64,000 bases of DNA, from contig MU053873.1 of NCBI GenBank assembly GCA_013239625.1, positions 262,524 through 326,523 on the forward strand. The letters are read 5' to 3'. Position numbers and translations under genes: made by a program. A model generated the notes under the pieces. That model had not been told where the DNA came from, did no database searches, and saw only the letters and a list, made by a program, of their open reading frames with translations. Shown here one piece after another: positions 19,816 through 54,118 of the stretch. The stretch is from Lama guanicoe. Its lineage: Eukaryota. Numbering within the stretch: position 1 is the first letter of the stretch; each line of letters begins with the position of its first letter.

Positions 19816-20525
19816 ACTAAAAGGAAGATGAAAACTTTGCAGGCTTGTCCTAGAGCCAATTAGTAATTATCCAAATAAAATCCAGATGCCCCAGGCTTCT
19901 CTGGCCTTCAGGAGTCCTCAGATACCCAAACAACGACCCCCATTCTTATACCAGATTTTTGTCTCTAAGTATTTGAATCTTTACGGAATGTTCCATGCCC
20001 CACCAGCCTGCCTGAGATGCTTCTGACTCTCTCCATCAGCCTGCCTCTCCACTCCTACCACAGGGACACCCCTGTACTGCTGAACCTCACGGCACAGTAA
20101 AGACCAGACTAAACTGTGTAGTAAGACTTGCTCCCAGGGTGCCCCACTGAGCAGATCTCATGGGCAGCTTCCAGCCGGGTTGCAGGGACTGGTTTACCCA
20201 CCGCCTCCCAGCCAATCAGCCAGGAGTGCTTGTGAGCCCACCGCCTTTGAGAGTCAGTCTCAACAGCTTTGACACTCCCAAAGGGAAACCCTCTTTGGAG
20301 AGACGTAGTCACCCAAAGGGAAGTTGTATGAGCAGATTAGCACCTCAAGTCTCTCTGTTTCTGGATAGGACCTTGGCTTTACCATTGCAGAACCAAGGAG
20401 CCTGTTAACTAAGGCCCCCAATGGTGATCTTATCCTCTATAGAAACCGAAAACTGCATAGCAAGTCTCAGTCAGGGCCTCATTATACAAACACACAGTCA
20501 CATTTAAAATATTATCTTTTTTTTA

Positions 20526-20560
20526 ATCGCTTCTCAGCCTTTTGGCTAAGATCAAGTATA
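20526..20560 (+). pseudogene. 3'-truncated U2 snRNA retrocopy (nt 1-35) with target-site duplication
   Basis: atcgcttctcagccttttggctaagatcaagtata versus the U2 5' end ATCGCTTCTCGGCCTTTTGGCTAAGATCAAGTGTA (33/35). Flanked by aaaatattatc-Tn-a at 20506-20525 and 20560-20576. Confidence 0.92.
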
Positions 20561-21859
20561 AAATATTATCTTTTTAAAAAAATATATAAATGAGTTATTT
20601 CCAAAGAGGATACACTTGGGACAAACAAAGGTATTTCCTTGCTTGTATAGAATCACACAGTGTGGAGGACCTTGCCTTAAGTCTGACAAGCACAGTGTGT
20701 TAAGTCTCATGTTATCATCTGGGTCTTCCTTCTGACTGATGGTAATTATAACTGAGAATTATTTTTACTATAAGAATCTGGAAATCTCCAAAGATTCAGT
20801 ACTGTTGGCTTTGAAACCATTAATTTTAAGACACGTTGAAAACTGGCTCTTAACGGCTAGTGTTATTTTAAAAATACAACTTTGAACTTGTGTGAATGCA
20901 ACTTTGACACTGATGAACGTTTCCAGTCTCTTCCTGGTAGAGGTGCGCTGGAGAATGAAAGAGCCCAGAAACCAGAGGGACCTGCGAGAAGGGAAGTGAG
21001 GGTGTGGTTTTGGTGCCTGGCTTCAAAGGCTGGTGGCAGTCACAAGCCTAACCTGTCTCTTTCCAGCTAGACCAATTTTCTGTAGACAGAAAAACCTCAA
21101 CCAGCCAAAGTCAGATTTCCCCTGCATGACTTTTAATTTAACGGCGTCCCACTTTCCAAGCTATCTGCATCTAATCTTTGTAAGCACACTGATAAACCAG
21201 GCACCGTCAGGCCGAGGGACATGGCTGATGCGGTTCAGCCTACGCTCCCCAGCTCAATGGCTAAGTTTTCATTCTTTTCACAGAAGTTCCAGCTCCTTGA
21301 CGAATTTGTGTTTACTCATTCCATTGTCGTTAAGGACAGAAATGAATAGACTAGAGAAAAGGTGGTTTTTTTTCCCCTCCCAATAAATCATCCAGTAAAT
21401 AGAATTGAATGCACTCCAGTCTTAATAGCTGGTTGCATTCATGAGCTCTGCTGCGTGAAATCAGCTAGTTTACATCTTCATGGTTCTTGGCCCCTCTTGA
21501 TAACAGATCTCCCTCTCTTTGTGTCCAGCCAAGGGCGCAGACCCAGCACCTTCTTTCTGCTGCCTCACACACACACTGCATCAGACACGCACGTTCCACC
21601 TACTGGCATCAATAAAGGACTGTTCCACTGAAGGAGGGGAGTGTCAATAGAGACAATAAAATCACTATAAAAATTTTCTTGACAGATTCAGATTCTAGAC
21701 TTTGACTGAAAGGATCTGCCACCCTAGGCTAAGTTTATGAAATGATAAATATAGATTGGGAGTTAAATTCTTCTTTTAAACCAAATGGTTCTTTCCAAAA
21801 TCCAGATTGACAACTAATGTGCCTGAGAGTCAAAGACTCTTGGAGTATTTGTAAAGCTT

Positions 21860-22104
21860 CTTTGTGCTCAAACACCTAGCGGGGAGGTAGGCTCGCTACT
21901 TCACAGAGTAGGCCATTGCACCAAACTGGTGAAAGCTGCAGGACGTTATCTGGGCTCAGTATAAGGAGGAACTTCAAAATTCCATGGCTTGTCCAAAAAT
22001 TGACACAAGGTAGGCCATTTCAAATTTTTTGACAACCTGTAGAGTTGGAAAGTCCCTCTTTCTACTGAGCCCAGATAACCTCCTGCAGCTTTCACCAGTC
22101 TGGT
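21860..22104 (-). mobile_element. L3/CR1 LINE 3' relic hosting the inverted duplication
   Basis: Minus strand ...gctcagtagaaagagggactttccaactc...tgtcaaaaaatttgaaatggcctac...gtgaagtagcgagc...ggtgtttgagca resembles the recalled L3 3' consensus. Confidence 0.6.
21920..22104. repeat. Long inverted repeat (82-bp arms, 21-nt spacer) within an L3/CR1 relic
   Basis: 21920-22001 pairs without gaps with 22023-22104. Manual count gives 68/82 Watson-Crick pairs, and 40/42 in the outer half. Confidence 0.95.
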
Positions 22105-22689
22105 CTTAGACCTGCGCTCTGGAGAGACACAAAGTAAACCTAATTCCTCTACTAGACAGCTAATCTCTTTATATGATTCTTTTAAAAGAATCGTGGTGAT
22201 TCAGGCTACAGTTGTATCGAGGATGTAGTAAACCCAGTATCTCTCCCCTCCTTCTCCTTTTAGTGGCAGAGTAAGCTTATGTGAGTGCTCAGCCTGCTGG
22301 GAGAAGGGAAAATGCTCCTCCCTGGCAGGCTCTGGTGCCTGGTGCCCAACTGGAGGCTGCCTGTGGGCGATCAGAAATGGATGAGCATCTGGCAAAGGAT
22401 GGTGCTGCACAGGTGGGATCCCTCAGCTTTTAGTCTGGTAAGATAACCCACAGCCTCCTGCTGCCTAAAGTGCGTGTCTGGCCCCAGAGAGTCTCCTGTT
22501 AGTCTGGATCACAGGTCCTGGGCTCTCAGTCTTTTGTGTGTATTTGAACCCGGGGAGTTTTCCCCAGCGCCCACCCCTGAGATTTTGATTAGTAGAAATG
22601 AGGTAGGCCCAGTAATCTGTATTTTAACAAGTACTCCGTGTACTGGTGTCTGTACTACACTGAGCTAAATGAAGACAAAAAGGCGACCA

Positions 22690-23580
22690 AAGGAAACCTT
22701 GTCTTGGTTTTATTAAACCAGAAAGCACACACACTTATAACAGTTAACTTATTGGTCCTATCCATTTAAATTAAATTATTAAATTTCATGTTATATAAAT
22801 AATACAAATAATGCTTTAAGTCATTTATTATTCATCTGACACTAATCATAAAGCCTATCAAAATTCTCCCAGAATAAGGGGGGACTAGTGGCATCACCTG
22901 CAGGTCACAGACTGGTAGCTGAAGTTTTGGTGGGAAGCATTCAACATGGGCCTTAAGAAGGCAGCCTGGCTCCTGCCTTGAAGCCTGTCCACGTCTCAGG
23001 CCGACTACCAGAATAGGGCGTAGGGCCAGATTTGAGGAAGTCTACAGACAGAGTACATTCTGGTCCAACACTTAGCTGATCAACCTTGTGATTGAAGTTA
23101 ACACAAAAATCACAGCTGGATAAGCACCACTACATACGTTCTGTGCAATTCTGTCGGAATTCTAACAAAGCCACAGAGGGATTCCAGCACACAGGTTACA
23201 ACAAGTTAAAACATTTCACAGTAGTCTAAATACCTGAGGAGTTTAATTATGCAAAGAAAACCCTCTTTCCTTTGAGAACAACAGCTTATTTCTTTTCAAA
23301 ACAGCTACTGTGGTTCTTTTACAGATATAAAGAGTGTCTCATTTCTAACTCAGCCTTGAGGTAATTCTGTCCCAAAGCAGCCCTGGTGACCCTGTTTCCT
23401 TGTGGCAAAGTGAACCCATGTTCACCCAGTAATTTAGCACTTAGTAAATTGAAAAAGTTGAGCAACAAATTTAGTAAAAGATTTTGCTAATAGGAACTTA
23501 CTTTCCTGCTAAGACATTTCATGCATATGTGTTGTAAAGTAAAATTATTTTAGAATAAAAGTAGCGAAGGCACCTAACTT
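22690..23580 (-). other. HORMAD2: Probable HORMAD2 3' UTR
   Basis: AT-rich sequence between the stop codon and the AATAAA signals. The 3' end is inferred, not observed. Confidence 0.65.
22709..22714 (-). terminator. Polyadenylation signal AATAAA (distal); a second copy is at 22824-22829
   Basis: TTTATT on the plus strand. On the minus strand it is followed by a U/GU-rich tract (gtttcctttggtcgcctttttgtcttc). Confidence 0.65.
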
Positions 23581-23685
23581 TCATTTTCTGTTAGGGATGA
23601 AGACTTTCACTGGTTCGCTGACCTTCCTCTTCTTCCTGGAGCTCTGAGGACTTTGCTGACTGTGCATAAAATTCATTCTTTGCAT
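23581..23685 (-). CDS. HORMAD2: HORMAD2 last coding exon (105 nt), [34 protein letters not shown]
   Basis: Minus strand reads gattctcacag|ATGCAAAGAATG...AACAGAAAATGA. It is phase 0, matching the donor at 53690. The C-terminus matches the recalled HORMAD2 tail [18 protein letters not shown]. Confidence 0.95.
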
Positions 23686-31432: not shown

Positions 31433-31855
31433 GTTACTCCCCAAACACACCCCATTCTTTTCCCACTTCTCTATTTCCTCCACACTTCAGAATACAGAAA
31501 TCTTCTCTAACTTACTCTCTTGAATTCTGAATAAGTCCTTCAATGTCAGTCTCTAAAACTATTTCATCCACAGAGCCTTTCCTACTCCTTTAATCTGGTA
31601 TGAGCATTCTTTCCTGAGCAAATACACACAGCATGTTTTGTCATTGTGTTTTCCTGGCAGCATTAATATTTGTAAACAACTTGCTCTTTACCTGGGACAG
31701 GGTTTTTAGTGCTTTAGGAATTCATTTGTATTGATATTATGATCTTTAGACTCTTTGCAATACTTTACACAGTGTCTTTCACACAGTAGGTATCAATAAT
31801 TCCTTCTACTACCTACGAAAGTATTCATTCACACAGTGAGTCACACATCCTAAAG

Positions 31856-32159: not shown

Positions 32160-32790
32160 CTCAAAATGCAAAGACTCATTATTGTAAAACTGTCACAGTT
32201 TTCCCAAGACTGATTTATTAAATCAATGCAATCCCAATCAATATCCCAATCATATGTTTTTTGGAATAAAATGATTTTTGATACCTACTGTGTGAAAGAC
32301 ACTGTGTAAATTATTAAGGTGATTCTAATAGTCATCTAGAAGCAAAGACGTACAGGAAAATCTTTAAAATACTTTGGAAAAGAAGAACTATGAGGGGAAA
32401 AGAGTGGCCCTTCCAGGTAGCAAAATGTAAACATAGAGTAATTAAAACACAATAGTAGTAATATAGGAGGAGACATACGGAGCAATACAATAAAATGCAA
32501 CAGCAAGTCTAAAACAAACCTATCTATCTATGGGTTTTTAATTTATGATGAAAGTGGCATTCAACTTAGCAGCAAAAGGGCAGACAGTTCAAGTGGTACC
32601 AACACAATGGAAAAACTTTCTCACATGAGGGGGAAAAAATCCCAGCTACTTTAGGGAGCCAAAAGTAAAAAAGCAAAACTACTTTATTAGAAAAAGATAC
32701 AGAAAAACTTGTTAGAAAAAAACATGGAAAATTTTGTTTATAACTTTAGCATTGCAAAGACCTTCCTCAGCAAAATATAAAATGATAAAA
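32160..32790 (+). mobile_element. Old L1 (L1ME-like) ORF2 relic; appears to resume at ~34470-34920
   Basis: aatcaatgcaatcccaatcaatatccca and ttatgatgaaagtggcattcaa are decayed ORF2 motifs. Confidence 0.7.
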
Positions 32791-48430: not shown

Positions 48431-49849
48431 ATTTCTCATTCATACACTCTCCAGTGTTGTTTCCTATTTTACCCTGCAGGTATTGTCTCTTCAGCCAGAG
48501 CTCGCAAAGGTAGAAACTATATTTTATGTGTCTTAATTTTCCTCACAGGGCTTAGCAGGACATCATGTTCTTAATAGAAATTCAAACTATAACCCAGAGA
48601 ATCTTAGCATGAGAGGAATCTCAGAGGTCCGTCTAGTTCAGATCTTCCCCCTAAATCGTGATTTTTCTCTTGCAACACCCTGGAGACAATCATCTATACT
48701 CCATCTTGAACACAGTGTGTATCTGTACTGGAACACAGCTGGTGACAAAGAGTTCACCCTTCTCAAGACAGCCAGATTTATCAAGTAGTTGTCATTGTTA
48801 GAAAATCCATCCTGAGGCAATAGGGAACCTGGAAGCTTCTGGAAAGTGATAATACTCATTTGAGAGCTATACAAATTTTTAGGCTCTGTAAGTTTCACTT
48901 CTGATACTATATCCTTAGAAAATAAGGGAAAATTCTGCCATGCATATAAAGGTATTTATTACAATACTATTTATAATAGCAAAATAAGAAATTAACTGAA
49001 ATGTTTAAAAGTAGGGAAATGGTAGAATAAGTGACTAAATGAAAAAACAAAGGTCATTAATATTTAAAAATATGTTACGTATGGAAATGAAACAAACTCA
49101 TATTTCTACCATGATTCAAATCACATACAAATATGTGTATCTATGGAAGATGGCTAGAGGGCATGCAACATATAAAATGAAGACAGTACTGATAGGATGG
49201 TAGGACAGTTGGAAGATTTGCATTGCTTTTTAAATTACTTTAACATCATCATGATATTGCTTTTAAATTTTTAAAGTGAAAGTTCTTCCTTCTACTGAGG
49301 CAAAATCAACCACTGCCCACTGCCCCCGCCAATGTAATTTTCACTTTCTGGCTCTTATTCTGCCCTTTGAAATTACACAAAATAAATCAACTTGCAGTAT
49401 TCGAAAATGAACATCATAGTTTTAGTACCCTCACTCTCTGGCACTCTGGAAGACAAATTAGAGAGGCAACGCTGACCTCAGGGAGACTCAGGAGACTCGG
49501 CTGTCATTCACCGAGAAAGCAATGATGACAGCCTGAGTCAGCACAACAGCAACAGGGCCAGACTTGAGAAATGTTTCAAATACGGAATAGATAGAAATGG
49601 TAACCAAAAGGGTGTGAGAAGTGAGAAGGAAATAGGAGGTGAACACATTCCTGGTCAGGCTCTTTGGTAAAGTTTTAATGCAACACAAAGATAAGGAACC
49701 TAGGGGGAGGAAGAGCAGGTTTGGTTGGATGTTGAATTTGAGATACTCATAGAATATGTCTATGTGTTGATGGCAAGATCAGTTTTGAATAAGGGAGACA
49801 AACCAAACCAGAGAAATAGAAGAAGGCAAAGATAAGAGCAAAGCATGAA

Positions 49850-52500
49850 TTAAAAAAAAAAAAGCAACAGAAGTGATTGGCATAACTAAAAGATGATTTT
49901 GAATAGAGTAATAAGAGATACAGATTTGGGACAAATATAATAAAAAAAAATGGGGCACAAATGAATACCAGTATAAAAACAGGGAAATAACTACAGAAAC
50001 AGAAGCAATTTAAAAAATTATAGAAGGCCTCCCCGAATAACTTCATGCCAAAAATATTTATAAATAACTGATCTTTCTCTCCTCTATTTTCAAGTATTTA
50101 TATATTTTGGTGTGAAGTTATTCATGGAGGTCTCTTATAATTTTGAAAATTACATTTTTCTGCAGTTATTTCTCCTTTTTTTAGAGAAAAATATAGAGCA
50201 TATCCCTGTAAACTTTAGGGTGGACAAAATTTTTCAAATAAAAACTGCAGAAAATAGATGAAAAGATTAATAAATTGAACTAAACAAAATTAATATTCTG
50301 TTCATCACAACACACCATTAAGAGAGTAAAAAGGCAACTCATAAGATTGAAGAGATATTCCCAATACATGTATCTGCAAAGGACTTACACGCAGAATATA
50401 TATTCAGACCTACTACAAATCCATAAGAATGAGAGACAACCCCAATAGAACCCAATAGGAAAAATGACAAGTGACTTGAAAAGACACTTCATAAAAGGAG
50501 ATATCCAACATGGCCAATAAACACATGAAAAGGTGCCCATCTTCATTAGTCATCAGGGAAATGCAAATTAAAAACCATAATGACATATCACTACACACCC
50601 ACCAGAAGGGCTAAAATTCAAAAGATGGAAAATGCCAACGGTTGGTGAGGATGTGGAGCAACTAAAACTTACAGATGGAAGTATAAACTGGCACAATCAC
50701 CTTGGAAATGGTTTTATAGTATCTATTAAAGCTAAATGTACACATATCCTGTGACCCAGCAATTCTGCTCCTAGCAATCCTATTCCCACCAGAAATGCAT
50801 ACATATTTCACTAAAAAACATGTTCAGAACATTCAGAGCAGTGAAAAAATGTTTCACACTCCGTGATTCCACATCTACAAAATAAAAACAAGAGAAACTA
50901 ATCTATTCTAATAGAAGTCAGGAGAGAGATACTTGTTGAGTAGAACAGTGACTGCAAAGTAAGACTGAGCTTTCTCGGGGTGCTGGTAGTAGTTTGTTTC
51001 TTGATCTGGGTGCTGACTTCACATGTGTATTCAGTAGGACTGGGACAGGGTGAGGCAAACAAGATACCTAGGGAGCAAAATTTAAGGAGGCACTCTCTCT
51101 TACCTTGTTTGCCTCACCCTCATCCTAGCCCAGGTGTTCAGTTTGTGAATATTTATTGAGCTAAATCATTATGATGTGTATATTTTTCTGTATGTATATT
51201 ATACTTGGATTTAAAAATATAAAAGGAGTGGAAATAAAATAAAAAATAAACTCCAAATAAAAATTAACTCTAGGTGGAATAAAAACCTAAATATAAACAG
51301 GAAAACTTTAACATGTGTATAATAAAACAGGAGAATATTATAAATGACCTCAGATAAGGAAGGATTTCTTAAGAATAACCAGAAGCACACATCAGAGGAA
51401 AAGATTTGACTACATTAAAATTAAGAGCTTCTCTTAGGAAAAATATCTTAAAAAGTGAAGAAGCAAGACACAGACCTGAAAAAAAATTACAAAATAAATA
51501 AGTGAAAAAGAATTATTATTCAGAACATATTTTTTTAAATCAGCGAGGAAAAGATAACCTAGTAGAAAAAGGCATGGAAGACTTGAACAGTTACTTTATA
51601 CATAAGAAAACCAGAAAGGCCAATACACATGAAAAGATGCTCAAACTCATTAACAATCAGGGAAATGCAAATCAAAATCAAATCATGAAGCATTACCATT
51701 TCATATCCAGTAGTTGCGAAAAAACATCAACTTGGGTAATAGTAAGTGCTGACAAGATTGTAGGGCATTCCCTCCACGATTGGTGGAGCATAAATTGGTA
51801 CAATTACTTTGGAAAACAGTTTTGCATTACCTACTGAAACTGAAAGTGTACAAGCCCTAGGACTCTTTGGTATATGCCCTAGAAACACTCTTGCATATGT
51901 ATATGAGGAGATGTGTATATATATAAATGCTTCTAACAATTAAAGATGTCTATCAAGAGTAGAATATTCTACAGCAGTGAAAATGAATGCACAATCACAT
52001 ACAGTAGGATAAATTTCATTTTTGATGGTCAAGCAAAAGAAGAAAATCACAGGATACCTAGAGCATGATTACATTTATATAAAACTTTTAAACAAGTGGA
52101 TATACTGATAGATGATAACACTATAAAGAAGAGTAAAGGCCAACTCAAAACCAAAAAAAAAAAAAAAAAAACCACAAACAACCTGATTAAAAAATGGGCA
52201 GAGGACCTGAATAGACATACTTCCAAAGAAGACATGCAGATCTGCCAACAGACATGTGAAGAGGTGCTCAACATCACTAATCATCAGGGAAATGCAAATC
52301 AAAAGCACAATGAGATATCACTTCACACCTGTCAGAACAGCTACTATCAAAAAGAAAACAAATAACAAGCATTGGCAAGGGCTGCGGAGAAAAAAAACCC
52401 TCATGAACTGCTGGTGGGAATGTAAATTGCTATAGCCACTATGGAAAACAGTGTGGAGTTTCCTCAAAAAAATAAAAATAGAACTCCCATGTGATCTGTT
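49850..52500 (+). mobile_element. Stack of L1 ORF2/3' UTR fragments of different ages
   Basis: The motif catcagggaaatgcaaat occurs three times (~50550, ~51660, ~52285). ORF 52096..52365 reads IKKWAEDLNRHTSKED. Confidence 0.88.
51035..51133. mobile_element. Short MER96-like hAT MITE
   Basis: 8-bp TSD gtattcag/gtgttcag (51027-34, 51134-41). Perfect 17-bp inverted repeat at 51047-51063 / 51104-51120. Confidence 0.8.
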
Positions 52501-53689
52501 ACTTAATCTATCAACTGAATTATTCATTCTCAAGTTGTCCTGCTTTTCATCTCAGTTAATAAAAGAGAAAGAAATTCTTAATTTTAAAAGATAAAAATCC
52601 AGTTGAAACATGCTCATTTTTTCTTAAGCTTTGTTTTAAAAACCAATCTATGTTAGCTATAGCTTCCTTGAGTGGAATCAGAAGAAATTTGCATCAAAAT
52701 CTAGAGCCATTATCATGTCTGACATTGTTAAAATATGTACTGACTAATACTGAAAAAAATCCTGTTGTTTGGTATATTATTTATATTAACTGAATCAAGA
52801 CTTCTTTTCAATATATTAAACGTAATACAAAGTTAAAGAATCACAAGGAAACTTCAAAAGCTACCTACTACAGCCATCTATCTTTAAATAGGACTCAAAC
52901 TTTCTCAAGCAAATAAATTAGCATCCTAATCTTAAAATACCTTCTGAAAAGATTTTATAACATTCCTTCCCATGAAGCGGTCTGAAAATTCTTTATGTTT
53001 AACTCAGAACCCTTTTAAGACAATGTTGGCATATGGTGAACTTTATTATCCAGACAAAGGGTTATAGATTTACCTAGGCCACAGAAGGACGCTAGCAGGT
53101 ACTCAACACCAAGTCTCTCTTGGAGGAAGCAGGAAGGTTAAACAGTTTAGAGCCCTACCTTTTTGGCTCCATTGGCTCCAAATCATCAGCTCCCTGGTTT
53201 TCCCCAGTGACCTACCCCCAAAGCTGGTCTCTCTCCACATAACCAAGGATTGACTATCATTTTGTTTTAATGCTGACTTAGATTTATCCGTAACATTATT
53301 CTACCCGAGTAATCAAGAATTTACTTATACTTCCAAGTGAGCATGAATAGATACCTAGAATATTTTAAAATATGTTTAATATGCCCTTTTAAATTAAAGA
53401 AAGAAACTCCCAAATTCCCTAAATTCATGGGTACCTTTTATGAGAGAAATATATTAGAAAGTCTTGTTTTCTCCTAGCCATGGACAATGTCATTTAACAA
53501 AGTATATTTCCTTCTTGAAGACAGTGCCTTTTTTTAGAATAAAGACTCCTTGAGGTCAGGCGCTAGTCTTGTTTTCGTTTTTATATCCAGCACACTGTAT
53601 TGGACCCTCACTATGATATGACCTGTGTAGGAACCGAAAAACGTCAACAGTGTTTAACTGAAGCGAGGAGTTACTAAGCTCCGCCTTAC

Positions 53690-53943
53690 ATGATTGTCGC
53701 ACTCCTCTTCCTCCTCCTCGCAGTCTAGTCCTTGATGGGCAATCTCTGTAGTGCTGCTCTCCTGGAAGAGATTGTTCTCCAAATCAGACACTCTGGTGGC
53801 CTCGGTTGTGACTTTCACTTTCATGCTATGAAAGCCAGTGGAGACCAATCCCACTTGCAGATTTACAGGCTCCCCCTCGAACAGCAGGAAGTGTGAGTTC
53901 ACCCCTTCTTTAAAACCAGGGGGTTGGTAATCATGTGGGGTCA
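53690..53943 (-). CDS. HORMAD2: HORMAD2 penultimate coding exon (254 nt), (V)[13 protein letters not shown]...[14 protein letters not shown]
   Basis: Lies within ORF 53654..53977. Acceptor cttttcattttgcag|TG, donor CAT|gtaagg. Carries the HORMA motifs TPxDYQPPGF and V(S)[10 protein letters not shown]. Confidence 0.97.
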
Positions 53944-54118
53944 CTGCAAAATGAAAAGGGCAGAAAGCCAACAACACTGAGTTTCAGGAGAACAAGTCAG
54001 GTTAATCTTTCATATGTAATAACATACATCTCTTTCAGATGCTTGCCAAAATCCTCCTATTTATCCAAAATATTACTTCAGCACTTCAGAAGGAATTGCA
54101 CGAGAGGTGTCCACCTAC

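Follow-up and report, generated by a model that had tools for sequence, protein, structure and literature searches.

The stretch of Lama guanicoe DNA analysed here (64,000 nucleotides of contig MU053873.1, assembly GCA_013239625.1, hereafter the window) carries on its minus strand a HORMA-domain gene, recognisable from the exon at 53654-53983 (Pfam E 4.6e-08). We take this gene to be HORMAD2 and not its paralogue HORMAD1 on account of its C-terminal peptide. The coding part of the last exon occupies 23581-23685 on the minus strand, with coding ending at 23581, and a PDB search with this exon returned no match. Further downstream on the same strand, candidate poly(A) signals can be read from the sequence, namely an AATAAA at 22709-22714 that precedes a U-rich tract, another AATAAA at 22829-22824, and a putative distal ATTAAA at 21132-21137 that is followed by a GU-rich tract.

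A long hairpin downstream of HORMAD2

A hairpin lies beyond the proximal AATAAA (22714-22709), the distance to its right arm being 605 nt, which bears out the earlier placement of the structure in the HORMAD2 termination zone about 0.6 kb past the signal; it would fall within a long 3' UTR if the distal ATTAAA (21137) were used. Its arms (21920-22001 and 22023-22104, 82 nt each) pair without gaps around a 21-nt loop with 68/82 Watson-Crick pairs (83%). The 14 mismatches are spread unevenly, 2 of them falling among the 42 outer pairs and 12 among the 40 inner ones, and they cluster at stem positions 43-69 (11/27), while positions 1-42 hold 2 and the 13 loop-proximal pairs (70-82) hold 1. The counts for the outer and the inner part agree with those of the initial annotation, which the position of the cluster refines, as does the number of mismatches open to G-U pairing, which is four on the plus and four on the minus strand and hence, as stated there, favours neither. 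In the outer stem, the left half (21920-21961) forms 40/42 Watson-Crick pairs with 22063-22104, or 41/42 if G-U pairs on the minus (HORMAD2) strand are included.

Folding of 21900-22124 gave -116.8 kcal/mol on the plus and -127.0 kcal/mol on the minus strand (z -13.5 and -13.0, respectively), and none of 200 shuffled sequences was as stable on either strand. The duplex of 21920-21961 with 22063-22104 was calculated at -74.9 (plus) and -81.3 (minus) kcal/mol, and on both strands the outer 55 bp show high pair probabilities throughout. As such, the stem is predicted to form on either strand if it is transcribed.

Among short-spacer fold-backs of the window the hairpin ranks first, and only one other exceeded the score cut (50007-50151). 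This second structure (49974-50183) is located in the last HORMAD2 intron and would hence surely be transcribed, unlike the hairpin downstream of the gene. It has an ungapped core of 81% (50007-50053 with 50105-50151), reaches 71% over about 210 nt with gaps, folds at -74 (plus) and -77 (minus) kcal/mol, and looks like an inverted local copy within a relic that we presume to be of an L1 family; an 8-mer test of this fold-back detected no repeated loop.

Several other features were noted in the window. A perfect 18-nt palindrome (22175-22192) is found 70 nt past the right hairpin arm, and a 62-nt inverted repeat (31739-31800 and 32274-32335, 473 nt apart) is 95% identical over 42 nt. On the plus strand, 21268-21660 combines a splice-acceptor-like tract near 21283 with AATAAA motifs at 21382, 21611 and 21655, and possibly represents the end of a transcript that converges on HORMAD2 and stops at least 260 nt before the hairpin. 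At 20526-20558 there is a U2 snRNA 5' fragment of about 33 nt, which scores 45.8 bits against Rfam U2 (E 2.8e-08), slightly short of the cut of 46 bits, and is flanked by 16-nt direct repeats (20506-20521 and 20560-20575) and thus represents a truncated retrocopy with target duplication.

Repeat layout and formation of the hairpin

The initial annotation derived the hairpin from an ancient L3/CR1 relic and likened it to inverted LINE copies. The surroundings of the two arms, however, point to a single element with an internal fold-back insertion. When the window is searched with a profile of both arms, one further match appears at about 49.3 kb (49250-49410, minus strand; nhmmer E 0.0024). Here the LINE-like repeat is present a second time in a more decayed form, and this copy served as an outgroup. 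The right arm together with its outer flank aligns to this copy with a local score of 78, in an alignment that runs from 22134 inward, whereas the left arm reaches a score of 39, aligns over 37 nt only, and has a flank that does not align at all. Since the repeat extends from the right arm into the neighbouring flank, which is not the case for the left arm, the right arm appears to be in its original place and the left arm to be the newcomer. Judged from these alignments, the right arm (segment A, 22023-22104) would thus belong to an old minus-strand interspersed repeat, and this relic would continue upstream beyond the stem to at least 22134 (22105-22134), a portion that is unduplicated, colinear with the 49.3-kb copy and without pairing to the left flank.

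The derivation from an old LINE-like repeat is hence supported by the diverged second copy. The more specific label of L3/CR1 agrees with the translations of segment A, its flank and segment C (21790-21901, minus strand, ends approximate; the likely 3' remainder of the relic), which we take to resemble the end of a CR1/L3 ORF2. A phmmer search with the 34-residue read-through of segment C against 1.84 billion proteins lent this label no support, as there was no LINE protein among its two matches, a TPR/ankyrin/patatin protein and a tandem-repeat protein, both of which are spurious and unrelated to LINEs. By eye, an approximate comparison with the L3 consensus suggested that many derived changes of the outer stem are common to the two arms, an impression too unreliable to be given any weight. 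A search of the window for SINE motifs of the tRNA type was negative.

The loop provides the second line of evidence. A 16-nt segment within it (segment B, 22004-22019) is found again in direct orientation at 21902-21917, where two bases separate it from the outer end of the left arm, with 14/16 identical positions. None of 20000 flank shuffles produced an equal match, and in a search of both strands this was the only other B-like place in the window. Along the minus strand, the right arm (A) is followed by the loop (B), the left arm (A', 21920-22001, 68/82 complementary to A), B again and finally C, so that the original sequence resumes with the second copy of B; the slack of the breakpoints at the A/B junctions is 2-3 nt at most. 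The left arm is hence an inverted copy of directly adjacent sequence within otherwise colinear DNA, which is the layout that template switching or snap-back synthesis leaves behind.

From our point of view, the hairpin is probably the scar of one fold-back copying event within a single dead LINE copy (probably L3/CR1), which has since decayed on both arms, whose outer stem is cleaner by chance or through later correction, and which most likely does not act as a working RNA, even though nascent HORMAD2 read-through RNA probably passes over it for a short time in germ cells. In such an event, a DNA strand whose 3' end coincides with the end of B would fold back and pair with a few complementary bases where A ends. 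It would then copy about 82 nt of A backwards and let go, and the released end would rejoin the original sequence where B begins, as a result of which B is copied twice. Either a staggered break with snap-back synthesis or a replication template switch could thereby generate A-B-A'-B-C in one step, and the stem would have been perfect at birth and would then have decayed on both arms, mostly without constraint. Template switching is described as making perfect stems in one step, and also combinations of inverted and direct repeats, in the available parts of two studies (10.1101/2023.04.19.537475; PMC8794818). The second long fold-back in the same 64 kb (49974-50183) was counted in favour of a scar as well, since it implies that such scars are not rare here.

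The duplicated loop bears on which of the two routes was taken. By our own mapping, the second copy of B would place the return point before the exit point in either reading direction, and switch orders of this kind are absent among 794 human-chimp events according to the accessible portion of PMC5453318. The four-point template-switch types observed in primates return after the exit, an order that the hairpin does not show, and a plain replication switch therefore fits poorly. Break repair with staggered ends, on the other hand, would duplicate B naturally, and snap-back synthesis at breaks is known to yield inverted insertions (PMC5728401, available in part).

Metagenome contigs were also scanned for related loci. 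A degenerate motif of the outer stem returned 0 loci there. A two-arm motif returned 10 (L001-L010), all of which were rejected as orthologues since they are unrelated fold-back elements with local scores of 22-28, corresponding to the motif alone. These loci fall into three apparent groups (L001-3, 6 and 9; L004-5; L007, 8 and 10) and are probably MITE-like elements or terminal hairpins, those of L004-5 being near-perfect over about 110 bp.

Stem decay and possible RNA function

The distance between the arms (K2P) is 0.20 overall, 0.05 in the outer and 0.39 in the inner part, and 8 of the 14 mismatches are transitions. The 49.3-kb copy allows five mismatches to be polarised, all of them within stem positions 36-57, and assigns three changes to the left and two to the right arm. 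Changes are hence found in both arms, which means that the mismatch cluster is not the product of one event in one arm and agrees with the old duplication proposed at the outset. An indel was rejected as the cause of the cluster, as a gapped alignment keeps the same register through it. The two copies of B differ at 2/16 positions. The neutral rate is near 2 x 10^-9 per site per year, and as a rough estimate we infer that the stem is some tens of millions of years old, with the age of the placental orders as the upper end.

The contrast between the outer and the inner stem had been read as a possible sign of selection or of arm-to-arm conversion. At the split chosen in the initial annotation it is pronounced (Fisher p 0.003) and with a free split it was equalled in 5/300 permutations; the chance of any 42-bp window with at most 2 mismatches is 1.9% of layouts, 5.5% with B counted and 0.4% if the clean half has to be terminal, all of these values applying to a locus that was picked for this very look. 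The unevenness is hence real and barely beyond chance (p 0.02-0.055), i.e. borderline once the split is not hand-picked, while correction of one arm by the other is still a live option. Homogenisation of arms by template switching is well documented, as far as the available text of PMC8604942 goes, and re-homogenised arms also appear in the accessible parts of 10.1101/2023.04.19.537475 and PMC8794818. Fold-back priming within the stem would correct an arm outward from the loop, matching the polarity seen, so that apart from chance a later correction primed in the inner stem and rewriting an arm outward may account for the cleaner outer half.

A different explanation accepts the same fold-back origin and proposes that selection has preserved the outer 42 bp as an RNA duplex, which would be transcribed by HORMAD2 read-through or within a long 3' UTR that extends to the distal ATTAAA, and would either be cut by Dicer/Drosha to yield small RNAs of the germ line or be bound by proteins of the ADAR type and edited. 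We regard this as unlikely. It would account for the difference between the outer stem (2/42 mismatches) and the adjacent pairs (11/27) and for that between the K2P values of the outer and the inner part (0.05 against 0.39), and it draws on the 41/42 outer pairs available on the HORMAD2 strand, on the distal ATTAAA with its GU-rich tract at 21137, and on the precedent of miR-582, the arms of which are listed as L3 and L3b derived (PMC10671384). Read-through can express template-switch hairpins, as stated in the available part of 10.1101/2023.04.19.537475.

The properties of the stem itself fit a microRNA precursor only in part. For such precursors, at least 16 paired bases are expected in the 22-bp loop-proximal duplex, and here 19/22 are paired on the plus and 17/22 on the minus strand; the loop also has the length of at least 10 nt that is required of a pri-miRNA. 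However, the preferred pri-miRNA stem is 35 bp (10.1101/2023.04.19.537475, in the part at hand), and with 82 bp the stem is more than twice as long as the roughly 35 bp expected between single-stranded flanks. Moreover, the 35 pairs next to the loop represent the worse-paired half, with 28/35 paired on either strand, and as a microRNA precursor would rather keep these loop-proximal pairs, the cleaner outer stem speaks against such a role, as does the even split of the G-U options (4:4). The prior is likewise low, since in the human lineage 57 of 6054 template-switch hairpins of microRNA size, i.e. about 1%, are annotated microRNAs (accessible part of 10.1101/2023.04.19.537475).

For an ADAR substrate or a source of endo-siRNAs the length of the duplex is sufficient, and the question is rather whether the stem is transcribed, for which the sequencing runs show no sign. 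For 21500-23500, the predicted share of words is 0.40 if the 3' UTR alone is transcribed and 0.79 if a transcript passes through the hairpin, and the eight runs on record as RNA (from two studies) contain 0.16-0.43, where the shares do not refer to particular positions, rare RNA is lost from the contigs, and the runs would fail to capture RNA that is nascent or small. Of 24 runs for this region, six unlabelled ones contain 0.87-0.97 of the words; six further runs that were guessed to be RNA (0.08-0.15), the RNA run at 0.16 and four raw-read runs without an index carry no weight either way. The shares from the RNA runs match those of a UTR alone and thus weakly suggest that it ends at the proximal site.

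Searches for a known RNA point in the same direction, as no part of the window matched an Rfam 15 family at the gathering threshold, and neither of two stem motifs in RNA spelling occurs in the literature text searched. Two weak Rfam hits near the left flank, snoZ194 (26 of 50 bits) and DUF805b, were dismissed as unrelated chance matches below the threshold (E up to 10). A search of the literature for HORMAD2 together with RNA topics, with most subscription papers and all supplements lying outside its range, yielded nothing on this locus; in the accessible parts of two papers, HORMAD2 is named in a target list (PMC8100685) and HORMAD2-AS1 in a network (PMC12940169). The initial suggestion that the hairpin could be a small-RNA source, an editing substrate or a termination-zone structure therefore gained no positive evidence from Rfam, run shares or literature motifs.

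One could nevertheless speculate that an ancient break-repair insertion made a perfect duplex in the termination zone of this meiotic checkpoint gene, that the outer 42 bp have since been maintained as a functional RNA element, and that spermatocytes or oocytes produce a long HORMAD2 isoform which extends to the distal ATTAAA and includes this duplex, and which would be edited, retained or diced and thereby tune HORMAD2 output. We consider this full scenario quite improbable. If it were true, it would represent a dated regulatory RNA born from a type of switch that is thought not to occur.

Alternative histories and known systems

The same order of segments could also have arisen in two steps that do not involve fold-back synthesis, namely by a tandem duplication of A and B after which the second A was inverted in place, with a product that is equally functionless. 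Such a history predicts the identical A-B-A'-B-C arrangement and avoids a switch order that has not been observed, and inversion-only events make up 45% of template-switch events in the available part of PMC5453318. Against this, both breakpoints of the inversion would have to fall precisely, one on the junction of the duplication and the other on B, a coincidence that a single event does not need, and we therefore consider the two-step history very unlikely. Two independent LINE copies lying tail to tail or nested (of the miR-582 or miR-28 type), or a palindromic MITE, are most improbable, since, although the divergence of the inner arms (30%) is as large as it might be between two old copies and such pairs have given rise to microRNAs (PMC10671384), the left arm is an exact-length copy of its neighbour, with 95% identity over 42 bp and far closer to it than to the 49.3-kb copy, the direct repeat is present in the loop and outside one arm only, where a MITE would have it outside both arms, the repeat to which the right arm belongs continues beyond it, and the 64-kb window holds one whole copy and no second whole hairpin.

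The preferred reading, a single fold-back copying event in one relic, would make the hairpin an ordinary mutational scar and a textbook case of one copying slip building a long hairpin, with the duplicated loop as a small twist that points to break repair over a plain replication switch. It would further imply that a hairpin in a LINE relic need not stem from two insertions, and that a clean sub-stem is by itself no sign of selection. Should the outer stem turn out to be conserved and expressed, it would represent a new germ-line RNA element beside a meiotic checkpoint gene with a known mechanism of birth.

Several known systems can be compared with the hairpin. LINE-derived microRNAs are similar in that they come from old relics; the hairpins of miR-28/151/708 are reportedly derived from L2. 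Like the hairpin, miR-582 (L3 and L3b; PMC10671384) is an old LINE relic within or beside a transcription unit, although no match was found between the hairpin and the printed miR-582 sequence. In contrast to these microRNAs, the guanaco structure consists of one element with an internal inverted insertion, is located beyond the annotated-type 3' UTR, and has an 82-bp stem.

The homogenisation of quasi-palindromes (Ripley model; PMC8604942 and PMC8794818, both available in part) likewise explains a cleaner sub-stem without selection. Such homogenisation is recognised by tracts of simultaneous changes between orthologues, and the present case is a single sequence.

The closest parallels concern the formation of the stem. 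Template-switch hairpins, in the accessible portions of PMC5453318 and 10.1101/2023.04.19.537475, likewise originate as an inverted copy of neighbouring sequence made in one step, with a perfect stem and a short loop, and with later decay or correction; compared with these, the piece copied here is long (82 nt), the loop is directly duplicated, and the return lies before the exit. In SD-MMEJ (PMC5728401, in the part available), a 3' end likewise folds on a short inverted repeat, is extended, unwinds and rejoins, which results in an inverted templated insertion. The repeats and insertions in the Drosophila assays range from a few to about ten bases, whereas the event that we infer from one sequence would have been an ancient one in the germ line and comprises 82 nt together with a 16-nt duplication.
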